From Escherichia phage vB_Eco_F27: 64,000 nt of DNA. The position numbers and the translations under genes were made by a program. This document shows, piece by piece, positions 12,947 through 63,816 of this stretch. Location of the stretch: the sequence record OP870146.1. One strand, written 5' to 3'. The notes under the pieces are model-generated. The model searched no databases and was not told the DNA's origin. It worked only from the letters and a program-made list of their open reading frames with translations. Each line of letters opens with the position of its first letter. The stretch's first letter is position 1.

Positions 12947-13555
12947 TCAGTAACTTACAATAGACAGATTCCAGATTGTATAACGTCCATCCTGAATAAT
13001 AGAATCTACACGCAGTGTAGTCCCTATAGGGAGCATAAATTCACATTCGTCAGATATAAGTCTAGCATTAGACCTTCTTGTCGCTTCAGGGAAAGCTCCA
13101 TTGAACTCACAAGATGGCGCAGCCAGAATCATGTTAAGCATATGTTCACGGAAGTTGAAAGCAAATGGCGCATCTTTGATGCAGAACATATTAAATGTTC
13201 CGTAAAAATTATACGAAGCAAAGTTACGTGCTACACCGAACACTGGGCTGAAGCTCATTACTCTGTCAAATTTAATAATACTACCAATGCCTTTATCATC
13301 GAGTGTGGCCATAGTTTTCTTAGAGATTCCACGATACATTGTCTCAGGAACAGAAGACGTCCAATTTCTACGAACGATTGAACTTAACTCCTGTTGAATA
13401 CAGTCTGGCTTGTTTTCCATACACTGCCAAAGGATGCTTTGTTCATTATCGTTGAATTGACTATCAATTTCGTACTGCAATACATCTTGATATTCGGGGT
13501 TTTGAGCACGACGAACCATTTCTTCAATTTCACACTCGTTATACGGCATAAACAT
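12947..13555 (-). CDS. modA: ADP-ribosyltransferase, ModA-like
   Basis: R-S-E ART signature (MYRG ... SFS ... ECEFMLP); paralog of next gene; synteny. Confidence 0.65.
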   Translation of the reverse strand: MFMPYNECEIEEMVRRAQNPEYQDVLQYEIDSQFNDNEQSILWQCMENKPDCIQQELSSIVRRNWTSSVPETMYRGISKKTMATLDDKGIGSIIKFDRVMSFSPVFGVARNFASYNFYGTFNMFCIKDAPFAFNFREHMLNMILAAPSCEFNGAFPEATRRSNARLISDECEFMLPIGTTLRVDSIIQDGRYTIWNLSIVSY

Positions 13556-13612: not shown

Positions 13613-14194
13613 CTAAAAATTCAACATTTTCAAATGAATGATTTTGTATAACCGAGATAAAGGGTCATATTCTAAGTCTTCAATTTCTACAATCTCAAAT
13701 CTAGAGATACCTGAGACCATGTACTCTTGTTCAGATTCAATCATATCTAGGACGTCAACACGCTTTTCTTCCATAACATGCTTAGGGTTCTTTCCGGCGA
13801 GTACAATGTTAATCATGTTTTGGTAGTAATCAAAAATGAATGGAGCATTCCTGAGACTAAGAATAGTGTACGTCTGATATTCCCATCTCCCAGAGAATTG
13901 ACGAGCTGTACTGAAATCAGTTGTGAACGATGTTACTCGTCCAGGAGACCAATGGCATCCAACAGAAAGAAGGGAAAGACGTTCTACTTCTTCTGGAGTT
14001 ACACCACGGTAGAGTTCTACTGGTACTGTAGAAGTCATATGCTTACGAACAAGATGGTCTAATTCATAGTGGAAATCTGGGTCTTCCTTAGAATCAGTGC
14101 AAGCCCAGAGAATGTTTTGTTCTTGGCGGGTGAATTTGCTATCAATCAGATTTGTTAGGTATTCACGTTCTTGAAGTTCAGATTGACATGTCAT
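13613..14194 (-). CDS. modB: ADP-ribosyltransferase, ModB-like
   Basis: R-S-E signature (LYRG ... SFT ... ESEQEYMV); paralog of preceding gene. Confidence 0.65.
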   Translation of the reverse strand: MTCQSELQEREYLTNLIDSKFTRQEQNILWACTDSKEDPDFHYELDHLVRKHMTSTVPVELYRGVTPEEVERLSLLSVGCHWSPGRVTSFTTDFSTARQFSGRWEYQTYTILSLRNAPFIFDYYQNMINIVLAGKNPKHVMEEKRVDVLDMIESEQEYMVSGISRFEIVEIEDLEYDPLSRLYKIIHLKMLNF

Positions 14195-59153: not shown

Positions 59154-59366
59154 TTAATTTTGGCCAGTATTTATTTTTCGCCTTTGGACGGCCTTAACAT
59201 CTGTGAGGTATTTTTCCAGCTTGCGCTTGCGTGTATAATCAGCTTTAGAACCAGTTTGACGGATATCCTCGTTTAAATGAGAAATAGAATGTCCTAATTC
59301 TCTTCGGATTTCATCCAATTTGGTTACAGTAAGATTACGAAGTTGTCTTTCGTTTAATTGCTGCAT
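59154..59366 (-). CDS. hypothetical protein (rI.1 position)
   Basis: 70-aa basic ORF. Confidence 0.45.
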
Positions 59367-59393
59367 ATATACCTCTTGGTTAGATATTAGTAT

Positions 59394-59975
59394 TTATAAC
59401 AACCCTGTCAAATCGTTCCAATGCTTCCGGCATAATGACACATATCTATCGGTATCACCAATTTCAATTTGACTGCCATCTGTAATTGGAAGTCCGTCTT
59501 CCGTGACTCTAGCTACCATTGTGGCCTTTTTACCGCAATGACAGACACCTTTAAGTTCAACAAGCTTATCGGCAATAGCCATTAATGCTTGAGAACCTTC
59601 AAATAGATTACCTTTAAAATCTGTTCGTAGTCCATATGCCATTACCGGCACATTGTATACGTCAACAATACGACTAAGTTGATACACCTTTTCAGTAGTT
59701 AAGAACTGAGCTTCGTCAACAAATACGCAGTGAATATCCTTTTGTGCTGCAGCCCATTTATAGAATTCAAAGATATCCATGTCTTTTGTAATTATATTGG
59801 CGTCCTGGCGAATACCAATACGAGAGACTATTTCACCTTTTGAATCGCGAGTATCAATAGCCGGTTTAAGAACTAATACACCCATGCCACGTTCTTTATA
59901 GTTATGTGCGGCAGTAAGTAATGAAGCAGACTTACCAGCGTTCATAGCGGCATAGGTAAAAATTAAACTAGCCAT
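59394..59975 (-). CDS. tk: thymidine kinase
   Basis: Walker A AAMNAGKS; Zn ribbon CHCGKKA...CRKH; 193 aa. Confidence 0.93.
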   Translation of the reverse strand: MASLIFTYAAMNAGKSASLLTAAHNYKERGMGVLVLKPAIDTRDSKGEIVSRIGIRQDANIITKDMDIFEFYKWAAAQKDIHCVFVDEAQFLTTEKVYQLSRIVDVYNVPVMAYGLRTDFKGNLFEGSQALMAIADKLVELKGVCHCGKKATMVARVTEDGLPITDGSQIEIGDTDRYVSLCRKHWNDLTGLL

Positions 59976-59984
59976 AAGAGTCCC

Positions 59985-60167
59985 TTATAGTGAATTCACG
60001 TAGTCAATGAGTTCTTGTTCTTTCCTGTCAAATGATTCCAACAATGCTTGATATTCTTCGTCCGTCAAAGGAGCATATTCATCATACGCATTGGTGGCTG
60101 CTTGCTCATCCAATAGGTCATGGATAAGTTCAAACAGTTTAGTTTTCTCTTCTTTAGTCAATTTCAT
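59985..60167 (-). CDS. hypothetical protein
   Basis: 60-aa acidic ORF. Confidence 0.4.
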   Translation of the reverse strand: MKLTKEEKTKLFELIHDLLDEQAATNAYDEYAPLTDEEYQALLESFDRKEQELIDYVNSL

Positions 60168-60391
60168 TTAGGTTCACCTTCTTTAACGAAATCTGGGTAA
60201 GGGTAAAATCCTGAGTAAAACCCTTCACCTTTATGATTGCTACAACCTTTGTTCGAACAGTAACACCAATAATCAAAATCACAAGCCATTTCGTCATTGC
60301 ATAAAGCAAAAACTACAGGCCATTCGCATTTTTCGCATTTAGCACCTGTAAGAATTTTTGTTTGACTCATAGCCATGTCACCTTTAAGCAA
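60164..60391 (-). CDS. Cys-rich small protein
   Basis: CEKCEW ... CYCSNKGCSNH. Confidence 0.4.
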   Translation of the reverse strand: MLKGDMAMSQTKILTGAKCEKCEWPVVFALCNDEMACDFDYWCYCSNKGCSNHKGEGFYSGFYPYPDFVKEGEPK

Positions 60392-60594
60392 TATTCTTCT
60401 ACATGTTGTTTACGGCCTTTCTTATCAATAAAGGTATATTCAACGAATGTTCCGATGTAGTCTTTATCTACATCATGTGGACTATTAATTGGACATTTAG
60501 TACGACAAATGCGTTCCCATTGACGAATAATTACTGCCTTATTCTTTGGATCATATGGATGTGGATAATGTATATTCATAATAACGGTTCCCAA
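60367..60594 (-). CDS. hypothetical protein
   Basis: 75-aa ORF. Confidence 0.4.
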   Translation of the reverse strand: MGTVIMNIHYPHPYDPKNKAVIIRQWERICRTKCPINSPHDVDKDYIGTFVEYTFIDKKGRKQHVEEYCLKVTWL

Positions 60595-61073
60595 TCAACA
60601 ATCACAATTTCTAGTTTAGTGGAATACGTATCTAAAATCTCTTCGATGACATCCCAGTTTCCACCACCAATACCTGCACCAATTCTTGGCATATAAATTA
60701 CAGGCTTTGTTATCTTATTCTTTCCGAATTCATTTAATTCTATTATACAATTCATTAAAGCAGAGTACTCAAAATTAGGTCCCGGCTCAAACTGTGTATA
60801 AAGATTAAAGCAATAAGCTTTATGGGTCTTAAAATATTTTTCATAAACCGAATAAGTCCAGAGTTTAGACTTGTCTCCGAATTCGGTTTGAAGTTTATCG
60901 GCTTCCAGAATTTTTGGATAAGCCTTTGCTAATTGCCCTGCCACACCAGCGCCCATTGTATGAAAACAATTACACCCATGAGCAATATTATTACCTTTAG
61001 AAAACAGGGCGACAATATCGCCCTTGATATAGTTTTTAATCACTTGCTGCAAGTCCTCTATTATAAGAGTCAA
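60576..61073 (-). CDS. macro-domain protein (ADP-ribose binding / ADP-ribosyl hydrolase)
   Basis: HGCNCFHTMGAGVAGQLAKAYP and MPRIGAGIGGGNWDVIEEIL match macro-domain glycine-rich loops. Confidence 0.7.
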   Translation of the reverse strand: MTLIIEDLQQVIKNYIKGDIVALFSKGNNIAHGCNCFHTMGAGVAGQLAKAYPKILEADKLQTEFGDKSKLWTYSVYEKYFKTHKAYCFNLYTQFEPGPNFEYSALMNCIIELNEFGKNKITKPVIYMPRIGAGIGGGNWDVIEEILDTYSTKLEIVIVDWEPLL

Positions 61074-61383
61074 CTAAACGGTCCACCATAGAATTGCATG
61101 CTGCCTTATCTTTAGGTTCCGCCACCGAGCATTCTAATATTTGCCATTTTTTATAGTATCTTTTAATTAAGGTAGACGCCTTGAACCTACTAGACGCCCC
61201 ATCTTTTTCTCCGTCTTTATAAGCGTATAACAATTTTTGTGAAAAATCTACTTTACACTCTTGACTTTTACCACAATAATCAGACGCCGTTCTGTTTGTA
61301 TACTCCGTTACATCAGTATATGTAGTATTAGCAAGAGCGTTAAATGAAACCAAGCCAACTATTAAAGCCAACATTTTGGTCAT
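61036..61383 (-). CDS. secreted hypothetical protein
   Basis: Signal peptide MTKMLALIVGLVSFNALA. Confidence 0.45.
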   Translation of the reverse strand: MTKMLALIVGLVSFNALANTTYTDVTEYTNRTASDYCGKSQECKVDFSQKLLYAYKDGEKDGASSRFKASTLIKRYYKKWQILECSVAEPKDKAACNSMVDRLVDSYNRGLAASD

Positions 61384-61922
61384 TCTTTTATTTCCAGTAG
61401 TTTATTTGATTTAAGGTAATTAGCCTTTTCTAGGACTTCAGAAGCATATTTACTTCCAGCACTTGTCTTCCATCCCGCATTATATGAGGATATAGCTTTT
61501 CTTATATCCCCGTTATGTATATTTAACCAATAAGAAAATTCGATATAAGCCCATCTGGTTGAATTAGACCGCTTAGATAGCATTTTCTTAATTTGGGCAT
61601 CAGTCATATTATAACCAAGCTGGTTAATTCTTGCCCTCATTGTTGGTAGATAATTTTGGAACATTCCATACGCATGGTGACCTTTCTTATCTTTAAGATT
61701 AATACCGGCAGATGATTCCTGCCATAGTATTGCGGCCATTATGTATCCAAGTCCTTTCTTATGCATATTTTCATGCGTTTTAAATTTTCCATCCTTAGAA
61801 AACTGTTCCCCAAACTGATAAGCATAATTCAAGTTATCGAGTTGGACATTACTAAAAGTATGCTCGGAGCTATGTGCTGATAACGAAAGAGCAAATAGAC
61901 CAGCGAGTAGTGCTTTTCTCAT
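61380..61922 (-). CDS. secreted lytic-transglycosylase-like protein
   Basis: Signal peptide; AILWQESSAG ... HAYGMFQ resembles SLT-domain catalytic Glu and GLMQ motifs. Confidence 0.5.
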   Translation of the reverse strand: MRKALLAGLFALSLSAHSSEHTFSNVQLDNLNYAYQFGEQFSKDGKFKTHENMHKKGLGYIMAAILWQESSAGINLKDKKGHHAYGMFQNYLPTMRARINQLGYNMTDAQIKKMLSKRSNSTRWAYIEFSYWLNIHNGDIRKAISSYNAGWKTSAGSKYASEVLEKANYLKSNKLLEIKE

Positions 61923-61930
61923 GTTTACCT

Positions 61931-62389
61931 CTAGATTTTAATCACTGCTTTAGAAGCTTTTCCTGGTAGTCGTTTACTGTTAATAATAGCCATTCTGCAT
62001 TGAAGAGTCTTCATTTTGAATGCTGGATTTTCGCGACAAACTGTAAGTCCTAACCAAAGATTTCCGTCAGTTATTTCTAAACGGCCTGGACGATACTCGA
62101 CACCTTCGACAAAATCTTCATCAACATCTGGACGGGCCGGCATTGATAAAAATTCTGCAACTTCTTTAACATGATTTTTTACTTTATGAAATAATTCAAA
62201 AACGTAATTCTCATCTATTTCTCTCTGGATGGCACGATCTAAGAGATGTTGAGAATACTTGATATGAAAGCCTGGTAGTCCAAGAGACTTTGCAGCATCT
62301 TTTATACTGGCATTTATTTTGCGGAACTCCGTTTCAAAGATTCGACGGAGTTTATTACGGCGGATAAAAACGTCTGAATTGATAGTCAT
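61931..62389 (-). CDS. regB: RegB sequence-specific endoribonuclease
   Basis: MTINSDVFIRRNKLRR...YSQHLLDRAIQREIDENYVFELFHK...CRMAIINSKRLPGKASKAVIK matches recalled T4 RegB. Confidence 0.93.
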   Translation of the reverse strand: MTINSDVFIRRNKLRRIFETEFRKINASIKDAAKSLGLPGFHIKYSQHLLDRAIQREIDENYVFELFHKVKNHVKEVAEFLSMPARPDVDEDFVEGVEYRPGRLEITDGNLWLGLTVCRENPAFKMKTLQCRMAIINSKRLPGKASKAVIKI

Positions 62390-62415
62390 TTTGATTTCTC
62401 CTCTAGTTGACAGGT

Positions 62416-62446
62416 CTATAGTAACACAACTAGAGGAGAAGTAAAC
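62416..62446 (-). promoter_or_regulatory. early promoter of regB, spacer complementary to SD
   Basis: GTTTAC ttctcctctagttgtgt TACTATAGACC; spacer CTCCTCTAGTTG is exact complement of 5'UTR CAACTAGAGGAG. Confidence 0.65.
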
Positions 62447-62449
62447 TGC

Positions 62450-62701
62450 TTATTCTTGGAATGGTGTGAGTTTTCCAGCTATCGAACAAATTTCTACCAT
62501 TGCAGGATAAAACTCTTTCACTTGTTCAAGGCGCTGGACAGCGTACCGCATTTCGCCTTCTTCAAGACAAGCCACCTGGTCATCGAGCAAATATTTGTGG
62601 TAACCAGTACAGGCTTCACTAATGATACGTTGGAATTCTTGCAAACTTTCAATTTTCACTAGTATTTTTCCTCGGGTCGAAATACTGCACGACATGCCCA
62701 C
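62450..62701 (-). CDS. hypothetical protein
   Basis: 83-aa ORF. Confidence 0.4.
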   Translation of the reverse strand: MGMSCSISTRGKILVKIESLQEFQRIISEACTGYHKYLLDDQVACLEEGEMRYAVQRLEQVKEFYPAMVEICSIAGKLTPFQE

Positions 62702-62925
62702 ATGCTGGCTTCTTTTAGATGTTGCTTAGCATACTTAAGAGCCTGTACTGCATCCATATCTTCTTTGGTTTGTTGCTCTGTTTCATTTTCTTTCAAGATA
62801 TATGCTTCTTCAATCAGAGCATCAAACAACAATCCAAGACGGACTTCTGCATCTTTAATAGCGTTCACTTTACCGATTTTATCGTCGGTATGTGGCTTGT
62901 AGCCTTTAATATCTTCAATCGACAT
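62659..62925 (-). CDS. hypothetical protein
   Basis: Start taken at MSIEDIKGYK to avoid overlap with upstream ORF. Confidence 0.4.
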   Translation of the reverse strand: MSIEDIKGYKPHTDDKIGKVNAIKDAEVRLGLLFDALIEEAYILKENETEQQTKEDMDAVQALKYAKQHLKEASMWACRAVFRPEEKY

Positions 62926-63139
62926 AAGGAATTTCCTCATCGGTGGCAAGGTCATATTCGACCAATTGGATAGGCTCATTAATACCATATCCACGTACAG
63001 TGATATCAGTTGCCGGATAGTTTCCAGTAATATCACCCATTCTAAATGCTTCAGTGAATGATTGCTCGCCTGAGCAACTAAACCAGGCGGCAAAACATTT
63101 TAAAACATCTTCAGACCCTTCTATAATCAATTTAGCCAT
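62915..63139 (-). CDS. hypothetical protein
   Basis: 74-aa acidic ORF. Confidence 0.4.
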   Translation of the reverse strand: MAKLIIEGSEDVLKCFAAWFSCSGEQSFTEAFRMGDITGNYPATDITVRGYGINEPIQLVEYDLATDEEIPYVD

Positions 63140-63501
63140 TATAGACTCTCAGTAAAGGTACGAGCGATAACGTCGCGCTGCTGTTCCGGAGTCAGAGAGT
63201 TAAAGCGAACTGCATAACCGGATACACGGATGGTCAGCTGCGGATATTTTTCCGGATGCTTAACTGCATCTTCCAGAGTTTCGCGACGCAGAACGTTAAC
63301 GTTCAGGTGTTGACCACCTTCAATTTTAACTTTAGGTTGATGTTCAATTTCAATTTCACGGGCATGCAAACCGTAGAAAATTTCCGGGTCTACAATAGAG
63401 TCTTCTTTAAAAGTCTTAGAGACGATAATCCGGGCTTGAGTACCGTCTTCAAAATAAATAGTGCCTTTATGTGTACCTTCAAGAATTTGATATGCTTTCA
63501 T
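63139..63501 (-). CDS. autonomous glycyl-radical cofactor (GrcA/YfiD-like)
   Basis: C-terminal [15 protein letters not shown] glycyl-radical signature; 120 aa; a T4 YfiD homolog has been described. Confidence 0.8.
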
Positions 63502-63507
63502 ATAACC

Positions 63508-63816
63508 TCAATTAGAAAATAAATTTATCCAAGATTTTTCTTTAATCAAAAATGGGTCGGAATTAAACGCCATTAAACTTTGAGTGATTAATCCCTTAAA
63601 TGGCCCATCAATAAATTCCATTTTGAAATGTGGAATACTAGTCATCAACCGTGCATTAGGAGCAGTACAAAGAACATGCTGCCCTGCGAACGGACCTTTA
63701 GTTAAACGATATCGTTTAGGTTTAAAATGGTAAATCTCGTAATTTTCTACAAGAGCCCTTTTATTGCATACTGGGCTGTTATAACAATACTCAAAAACTT
63801 CAATAGTGGTCATCAT
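63508..63816 (-). CDS. hypothetical protein
   Basis: 102-aa ORF. Confidence 0.4.
   Translation of the reverse strand: MMTTIEVFEYCYNSPVCNKRALVENYEIYHFKPKRYRLTKGPFAGQHVLCTAPNARLMTSIPHFKMEFIDGPFKGLITQSLMAFNSDPFLIKEKSWINLFSN

Follow-up and report, generated by a model that had tools for sequence, protein, structure and literature searches.

The toxin DarT2 attaches ADP-ribose to thymidine in single-stranded DNA, which blocks replication. In earlier work, phage T4 withstood DarTG2 even when adfA and adfN were both missing, which predicted a further anti-DarTG2 factor, and the T4 gene tk.4 fills this gap. Transposon sequencing of T4 on a DarTG2 host gave tk.4 as the sole significant hit, and a clean tk.4 knockout rendered the phage sensitive to DarTG2; the gene was renamed adfM, for anti-DarT factor macrodomain (bioRxiv 10.1101/2025.11.20.689424, November 2025). 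The authors of this preprint, which has not been peer reviewed, noted the structural similarity of Tk.4 to the DarG macrodomain, and the enzymatic removal of ADP-ribose by Tk.4 is only inferred there (bioRxiv 10.1101/2025.11.20.689424). In the literature searched, this preprint was the one paper to join tk.4 to DarT, and Tk.4 was nowhere the subject of a biochemical assay; its function has been tested in T4 only, and by genetics only.

Proteins with demonstrated activity on thymidine-linked ADP-ribose are known from other sources. SCO6735 of Streptomyces coelicolor acts on DNA as a hydrolase of thymidine-linked ADP-ribose and shields cells from DarT; activity is abolished by Q85A, nearly abolished by N27S and impaired by G128E, and Q85 occupies the position of K84 in TARG1 and K80 in DarG (PMC9411070). 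In SCO6735 the lysines that position the DNA are K34 and K89. Human TARG1/OARD1 also hydrolyses thymidine-linked ADP-ribose. Among phages, gp104 of PhiKZ, likewise named AdfM, can in vitro strip an oligonucleotide of the ADP-ribose added by DarT2, and it counteracts DarT2 in cells (2026, Cell Reports); the N23A mutant of this protein is impaired. A further phage macrodomain acts on a different substrate. The RES-domain NADase aRES yields ADPR-1''-phosphate, and phage NARP1 operons include a Poa1p-like macrodomain, Adpp; Vibrio phage Gary encodes an Adpp that was shown in vitro to dephosphorylate ADPR-1''-P, lets NARP1 beat aRES and restores NAD+ rebuilding (bioRxiv 10.64898/2026.01.28.702374, January 2026).

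The locus described here lies in a 64-kb stretch of DNA that was analysed as a whole (the window). By megablast of the 3.2 kb surrounding the gene, the window belongs to a T4-like coliphage, with an identity of about 99% to AV111, mogra and other phages. Since mogra is classified in Mosigvirus, the genus of RB69, the window phage is, by its sequence, a Mosigvirus-type (RB69-like) T4-like coliphage. The gene order is tk, tk.1, tk.2, tk.3, macro, vs, vs.1, regB, the arrangement of T4, where the gene in the place of the macro gene is tk.4. The initial annotation had assigned the gene to the tk-regB segment, which agrees with the positions of tk (PF00265, 59394..59975) and regB (PF10715, 61931..62389). 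Between tk and the macro gene are three small DUF genes, homologues of tk.1, tk.2 and tk.3, while beyond vs there is a vs.1-like gene, followed by regB. The macro gene would be expressed from this leftward tk-regB block. A promoter scan of 59300-63600 gave 12 sigma-70-like sites, against 13.8 in shuffled sequence, and hence no excess. Near-identical genes in GenBank already carry the label 'macro domain protein' or 'phosphatase', and both PHROG 335 and RefSeq name the family 'phosphatase'.

The maximal open reading frame in the ORF listing of the window runs from 61073 to 60576 on the minus strand and encodes 165 amino acids from a TTG codon. This frame, on which the initial annotation was based, does exist, with both of the motifs quoted there, but its likely product is ten residues shorter. 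The TTG falls within vs. Relatives such as phage mogra annotate a 155-aa product from the GTG equivalent to 61043, and T4 Tk.4, as well as every homologue below about 90% identity, begins to align only at residue 11 of the 165-aa frame. Together with the placement of a GAGGA Shine-Dalgarno sequence, which has an identical match at the equivalent place in T4, these observations set the likely true start at GTG 61043, and the preceding codons are probably not translated (Table 1). The overlap with the end of vs suggests translational coupling. As the start of the macro gene overlaps the vs stop and its own stop overlaps the start of the tk.3 homologue, it is probably translated within a coupled string of small genes. 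The detail of the upstream junction differs between the two phages: in T4 there is an ATGA overlap between vs and tk.4, whereas the window phage has a GTG start and a longer overlap.

Table 1. Positions of the macrodomain gene and its features in the window
Feature	Position	Strand	Remarks
Macrodomain CDS, most likely extent	60576..61043	minus	155 aa, GTG start, TGA stop; orthologue of T4 tk.4/adfM
Ten additional codons of the maximal TTG-start ORF	61044..61073	minus	within the 3' end of vs
Shine-Dalgarno sequence GAGGA	61054..61058	minus	10 nt upstream of the GTG
Overlap of vs end and macro GTG start	61036..61043	minus	vs TAA stop at 61038-61036; 8-nt overlap
GC-rich hairpin followed by a U-tract	61006..61024	minus	8 pairs, 3-nt loop; codons 7-13 of the macro gene; from a terminator-like scan
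ADP-ribose-binding loop 1, H22-G36 (HGCNCFHTMGAGVAG)	60936..60980	minus	family-invariant H22 and N25; aligned with TARG1 AHCISEDCRMGAG
Motif N80-L-Y-T-Q84	60792..60806	minus	Q84 at the catalytic Lys position of TARG1 (K84) and DarG (K80)
Phosphate-binding loop 2, P119-W130 (PRIGAGIGGGNW)	60654..60689	minus	includes RIGAGIGGGNW; G126 at the position of TARG1 catalytic D125
ATGA overlap of macro stop codon and ATG of the tk.3 homologue (DUF7202)	60576..60579	minus	macro TGA stop shares ATGA with the downstream ATG

That the product is a macrodomain, as the initial annotation had proposed, is supported far beyond chance. It matches the Pfam Macro family PF01661 at profile positions 2-117 of 118 with 24.8 bits, above the gathering cut-off of 22 bits, and PHROG 335 with E=5e-64. 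A family profile built from 46 sequences matches solved macrodomains with E-values from 4.5e-17 to 4e-11. The AF2 model built on the alignment of these 46 homologues has a pLDDT of 95.9 and a pTM of 0.91, in comparison with a pLDDT of 37 for an unusable AlphaFold model from the single sequence, and it has the three-layer alpha/beta/alpha macro fold. Its best Foldseek match is human TARG1/OARD1 (4J5R, E 8.9e-10). Profile alignment and the predicted structure thus confirm a 155-residue single-domain macrodomain of the ALC1/TARG1-like class. Both glycine-rich loops match the ADP-ribose-binding loops of TARG1 (AHCISEDCRMGAGIA and PRIGCGLDRLQW) in the profile alignment, and they also align to their counterparts in BT1257, Poa1p and SCO6735; in the mechanism considered here they would hold ADP-ribose. 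Whether judged by sequence or by fold, Poa1p and BT1257 are at least as near to the protein as DarG is, which counts against the removal of ADP-ribose from DNA.

Within this class, the closest relative with a known phenotype is Tk.4 of T4. An ungapped alignment of the two proteins spans all 155 residues, with 84% identity and with all motif residues identical, and the genes are alike in their place between vs and tk.3, in the Shine-Dalgarno sequence and in the 5' hairpin. They differ in genus (Mosigvirus for the window phage, Tequatrovirus for T4) and by 25 substitutions, for example G127 of the window protein, which is K in T4. On this comparison, the window gene is the Mosigvirus orthologue of T4 tk.4. 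The relevance to DarTG that the initial annotation had put forward gains from this assignment, in that the T4 orthologue is the single gene whose loss sensitises T4 to DarTG2. In the anti-DarT factors AdfA and AdfB, however, single substitutions turn activity on or off, and 84% identity is therefore no guarantee of equal specificity.

The active-site residues place the protein more precisely. Across 46 phage and metagenomic homologues, H22, G23, N25, G33, A35, D49, N80, Y82, T83, Q84, P119, I121, G122, G124 and W130 are invariant. In bacterial homologues, D49, N80, Y82 and Q84 are invariant in 79 of 79; the conservation of HGCNC and PxIGAG in the same set, including G122 and G124, is not independent evidence, since both motifs served as search patterns in the bacterial scan. 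In the profile alignment, Q84 is aligned with TARG1 K84 and G126 with TARG1 D125, so that the Lys/Asp dyad of TARG1 and the catalytic Lys of DarG are replaced by Gln84 and Gly126. The initial annotation had taken a loss of conserved catalytic residues on alignment as an argument against its proposal, and these residues are indeed absent, but the same Gln replaces the Lys in SCO6735, which is an active enzyme. The missing Lys and Asp do not, therefore, indicate an inactive protein. N25, H22 and G124 of the window protein correspond to N27, H24 and G128 of SCO6735, whereas the equivalence of Q84 to SCO6735 Gln85 is transitive, by way of TARG1, as the direct alignment to 5E3B covered the C-terminal loop only. 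With this bridge for the Gln, the protein carries the set of residues that marks the SCO6735-type Gln branch (Q84 with N25, H22 and G124).

SCO6735 (PDB 5E3B) resembles the window protein in other respects as well. Both are stand-alone proteins of about 150-160 aa with Gln at the catalytic-Lys position and with the His-x-x-Asn and Gly-x-Gly residues, and neither is encoded next to a DarT gene, although SCO6735 has been shown to protect against DarT. The profile match has an E-value of 7.9e-14 over nearly the full length, ninth among the matches listed; identity is low, and a search with the single sequence gave only E=8e-5. TARG1 (4J5R) is matched by the profile at E 1.3e-14 over the full length, but differs in the catalytic dyad, K84/D125 there being Q84/G126 here. 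By analogy, the T-even Tk.4/AdfM branch most likely works in the manner of SCO6735, with Gln in place of the Lys of DarG. Gln84, held by Asn25, would position the distal ribose for attack by water, unlike in the Lys-dependent DarG and TARG1.

There are several differences from DarG itself (T. aquaticus 5M31/5M3E, M. tuberculosis 5M3I). DarG has the catalytic Lys in FPTK, where the window protein reads LYTQ, and it also has a C-terminal DarT-binding domain and a DarT operon, of which the window protein and its gene have neither. The NCBIfam model for DarG, NF048014, gave 26.1 bits at positions 4-146 of 338, against a cut-off of 250, and the PADLOC DarG match was limited to positions 4-145 of 329. 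There is no DarT gene beside the macro gene, the neighbours of which are vs and tk.3. The lack of the DarG catalytic Lys in the window protein is an observation that counts against removal of ADP-ribose from DNA, while PhiKZ gp104, as a stand-alone phage macrodomain, is a precedent that counts for it. gp104 retains the DarG-type Lys (FPTK), where the window protein has Gln. The two proteins are only about 18% identical, and are therefore not orthologues in spite of the shared name AdfM. They are nevertheless related, with an hhalign probability of 95.6%, and N25 of the window protein aligns with N23 of PhiKZ AdfM. In the same alignment the PhiKZ Lys was put two residues off Q84, in a low-confidence stretch, and the catalytic strand was not judged from it. 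By sequence, the T-even and PhiKZ AdfM proteins are separate branches of one macrodomain class.

Homologues of the window protein are widespread. By tblastn, relatives are present in 2,793 of the 50,697 phage records searched; most of these are large myoviruses infecting enterobacteria, Klebsiella, Salmonella, Pseudomonas, Vibrio, Acinetobacter and Aeromonas, and relatives are also found in unrelated phage groups (Demerecviridae, Schitoviridae and Pakpunavirus). A scan of species-representative genomes yielded 235 bacterial loci with homologues. The bacterial genes are stand-alone, encode about 150 aa and sit among lineage-specific housekeeping neighbours, with no recurring partner and no DarT. 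An origin of the phage gene as a truncated DarG from a bacterial DarTG operon was considered and rejected on this ground, the bacterial homologues standing alone with neither a recurring neighbour nor DarT.

Taken with the T4 genetics, the orthology and the likeness to SCO6735 make it probable that the protein strips ADP-ribose from phage DNA and so gives resistance to DarTG2. In such a scheme, host DarT2 would use NAD+ to ADP-ribosylate thymidines in single-stranded DNA of the phage and so stop replication; the macro protein would cleave the bond between ribose C1'' and thymine, freeing ADP-ribose and restoring the DNA, and this repair would yield a DarTG2-resistant phage. The present analysis establishes the fold and the active-site residues, as well as orthology and synteny with T4 tk.4, while the genetic requirement was established by others in T4.

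By its sequence, the window protein also belongs to the family of the ADPR-1''-phosphate phosphatase Adpp. In this comparison the Gary protein was represented by its syntenic counterpart from BBMuffin, which belongs to the genus of Gary. The BBMuffin protein has 158 aa and shares 37% identity with the window protein (E 3e-22); its gene sits between Prs-like and NAMPT-like genes. It keeps the motifs H..N, D49, N-x-Y-x-Q and P-x-IGxG..GG-W, but at the position of T83 in the tk.4 clade it has G. Two further homologues, in Acinetobacter phage Aci02-2 (35% identity) and Pseudomonas phage C11 (28%), adjoin NARP1-type genes. The only phage member of this sequence family that has been tested biochemically is an ADPR-1''-phosphate phosphatase, an observation that weighs against the removal of ADP-ribose from DNA. 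A comparison of isoelectric points between DarT-countering and NARP1-linked members was uninformative.

The relationship to Adpp bears directly on the alternative that the protein is mainly, or additionally, a phosphatase of the Poa1p/Adpp type, converting ADP-ribose-1''-phosphate, from RES-domain NADases (aRES) or from RNA 2'-phosphotransferase reactions, into ADP-ribose. The family label in PHROG 335 and RefSeq agrees with such an activity, as do the presence of yeast Poa1p (6LFQ) among the nearest solved structures, the activity of Gary Adpp in vitro, the shared motifs of the BBMuffin counterpart and the homologues beside NARP1-type genes in Aci02-2 and C11. In addition, the group displaced is in either reaction one on C1'' of the distal ribose, so that one active site could do both. 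The genomic setting points the other way, the Gary adpp gene being placed between a Prs-like (Adps) and a NAMPT-like (Namat) gene, and the window gene in a T4-type tk-vs context with no NARP1 operon. No Prs-like or NAMPT-like gene was detected within the 64-kb window (best tblastn E-value 0.84), and the ADP-ribose produced would thus not feed NAD+ rebuilding by the phage here. Moreover, a crude NJ tree places the NARP1-linked members outside the Straboviridae tk.4 clade, and DarTG2 sensitivity is the sole reported phenotype of T4 tk.4. On balance we regard a phosphatase role as unlikely, though plausible as a second activity. Protection could also come about by binding, the protein acting as a stoichiometric inhibitor that occludes DarT2 or sequesters ADP-ribosylated DNA or ADP-ribose. 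Inhibition of DarT in vitro survives the inactivating mutations Q85A in SCO6735, K80A in DarG and K84A in TARG1, and is strongest with SCO6735 (PMC9411070), and the anti-DarT factors AdfA and AdfB act through toxin binding; as SCO6735 inhibits DarT without catalysis too, protection need not be enzymatic. Against this stands the strict conservation, in more than 120 phage and bacterial homologues, of the residues required for catalysis in SCO6735 and PhiKZ AdfM, which favours an enzyme over a binder of one fast-evolving toxin, and the bacterial homologues stand alone amid housekeeping genes, with no DarT partner to bind. Protection by binding is accordingly judged to be quite improbable.

Two other alternatives had been raised in the initial annotation. 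In one of them the protein would erase or tune the ADP-ribosylation or RNAylation of host proteins by the phage's own Alt/ModA/ModB-type enzymes. T4 ADP-ribosyltransferases modify arginine, and macrodomains of this class are not known to act on the arginine linkage; their known substrates carry ADP-ribose linked through an ester, thymidine or a 1''-phosphate. Genes of the required kind were correctly anticipated, as the window has two Mod-like ORFs (12947..13555 and 13613..14194) that are 30-37% identical to T4 ModA/ModB, and Iyer et al. note the frequent co-occurrence of ADP-ribose-processing domains and ADP-ribosyltransferases in T4-like phages. The Mod-like genes are, however, about 47 kb from the macro gene, with no genetic linkage, the phenotype of T4 tk.4 gives no pointer to Mod enzymes, and homologues are common in bacteria and unrelated phage families, all of which renders this reading very improbable. 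The general proposal of a reversal of ADP-ribosylation thus holds as far as the sensitisation of T4 to DarTG2 upon loss of the orthologue is concerned, but nothing ties the protein to the phage's own ModA/ModB. The other suggestion is a breakdown of immune signals derived from ADP-ribose, for example the gcADPR or His-ADPR of Thoeris. It draws on the general capacity of macrodomains to bind ADP-ribose derivatives, and no further support for it was found. The known anti-Thoeris proteins in the cited literature are sponges or active-site blockers without relation to the present family, and the T4 screen flagged tk.4 for DarTG2 only, such that a role of this kind appears exceedingly improbable. 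The papers on CmdTAC, on reversal of RNA ADP-ribosylation and on Thoeris II contained nothing on this macrodomain family.

The removal of ADP-ribose from DNA, which we favour, could be reconciled with the Adpp relationship. Together, the Gln-type site and the link to Adpp suggest a hypothesis of dual activity. In this hypothesis, which we put forward tentatively and hold to be rather doubtful as a whole, Tk.4/AdfM would be a derived clade of a large Gln-type, stand-alone, Poa1p/Adpp-like family and not a captured DarG, with an active site that may detach thymine-DNA as well as phosphate from C1'' of ADP-ribose. Were this true, one small early gene could blunt both DarTG2 and the RES-type NADases that make ADPR-1''-P. 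Since the window protein shares the sequence family of Adpp and has the Gln-type site, the two recently named counter-defence activities, AdfM and Adpp, may be variations on a single enzyme family.

The gene itself is already annotated and largely explained, the T4 orthologue having recently been given this role; what the present analysis adds beyond annotation is the Gln-type active site and the sequence family shared with Adpp. For annotation, genes of this kind would be better labelled as tk.4/adfM orthologues (anti-DarTG2 macrodomain) than as 'phosphatase' or 'hypothetical protein', with the start at 61043 in the window phage. The gene represents another layer in the set of anti-DarT factors (AdfA, AdfN, AdfM) of T4-like phages, and it bears on host-range prediction for therapeutic coliphages where strains carry DarTG.

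A final observation concerns the hairpin inside the 5' end of the gene. An outer stem that would sequester the Shine-Dalgarno sequence was predicted by folding in the window, but was not reproduced in T4, and we rejected it as a conserved feature. The hairpin itself is kept in T4, CrRp10 and RB49. As part of the joint reading in which the gene serves against two defences, this conserved hairpin, located just 3' of the start codon, may gate expression of the macro gene.

A macrodomain protein of the same family as the macro gene product accompanies a NARP1-type pair, that is a Prs-like and a NAMPT-like gene, in three unrelated phages infecting Acinetobacter, Vibrio and Pseudomonas. An RNA ligase gene lies within ~1-3 kb in all three of these genomes. 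This neighbourhood echoes Poa1p, the protein that the NARP1 macrodomain resembles, which has been tied to RNA repair and splicing chemistry. Among bacteria (loci L004-L083), the homologues of the macro protein are stand-alone proteins of ~150 aa with 35-44% identity, surrounded by housekeeping genes and frequent in Rhodobacterales, Verrucomicrobiota, Desulfobacterales, Hyphomicrobiaceae and Bacteroidota. They have the HGCNC, NxYTQ and PxIGAG motifs in common with the macro protein, HGCNC and PxIGAG being the patterns with which the scan was made.

Features of the window, and loci in other phages where a family member stands beside NARP1-type genes
Feature	Location	Strand	Detail
Mod-like ADP-ribosyltransferase paralogue, 202 aa	window 12947-13555	-	tblastn
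Mod-like ADP-ribosyltransferase paralogue, 193 aa	window 13613-14194	-	tblastn
GC-rich hairpin	window 61006-61024, flanks 60985-61060	-	stem AGGGCGAT, loop ATT, stem GTCGCCCT
vs.1-like ORF, 180 aa	window 61380-61922	-	
NARP1-type pair + macrodomain	Acinetobacter phage Aci02-2 (L085)		
NARP1-type pair + macrodomain	Vibrio phage BBMuffin (L086)		
NARP1-type pair + macrodomain	Pseudomonas phage C11 (L087)		

Codons 7-13 of the macro gene, ~20 nt past its start, hold a GC-rich hairpin with GUUUUCU 3' of it. The stem bases are identical in the window, T4 and Citrobacter phage CrRp10, and in the much more distant RB49 the stem is kept, with one G.T pair replaced by A-T. In the window fold the Shine-Dalgarno is also paired with the U-tract (z=-2.7), a pairing absent from the T4 fold. 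Possible roles of the hairpin are those of an attenuator, a terminator or an element acting in translation.

Elsewhere in the window, two Mod-like paralogues stand side by side, with 30-37% identity to T4 ModA/ModB by tblastn; neither had a Pfam match at E<0.01. The N-terminus of the vs.1-like ORF resembles a signal peptide, and the SLT lytic transglycosylase domain scored 19.4 bits against this ORF, below the cut-off of 21.3. Some relatives carry the SLT transglycosylase label for it.

Two non-orthologous phage macrodomains with ~18% identity, T4 Tk.4 (bioRxiv 10.1101/2025.11.20.689424) of the Gln type and PhiKZ gp104 of the Lys type, were each named AdfM, independently of one another. This double use risks confused annotation later. 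Labels are also inconsistent in near-identical public records, such as that of phage mogra (MN850579.1) and the RefSeq records of relatives: the macro gene appears variously as 'phosphatase', 'hypothetical protein' or 'macro domain protein', the tk.3 homologue as 'ABC transporter ATP-binding protein', and several unrelated small ORFs near regB as 'endoribonuclease RegB'.
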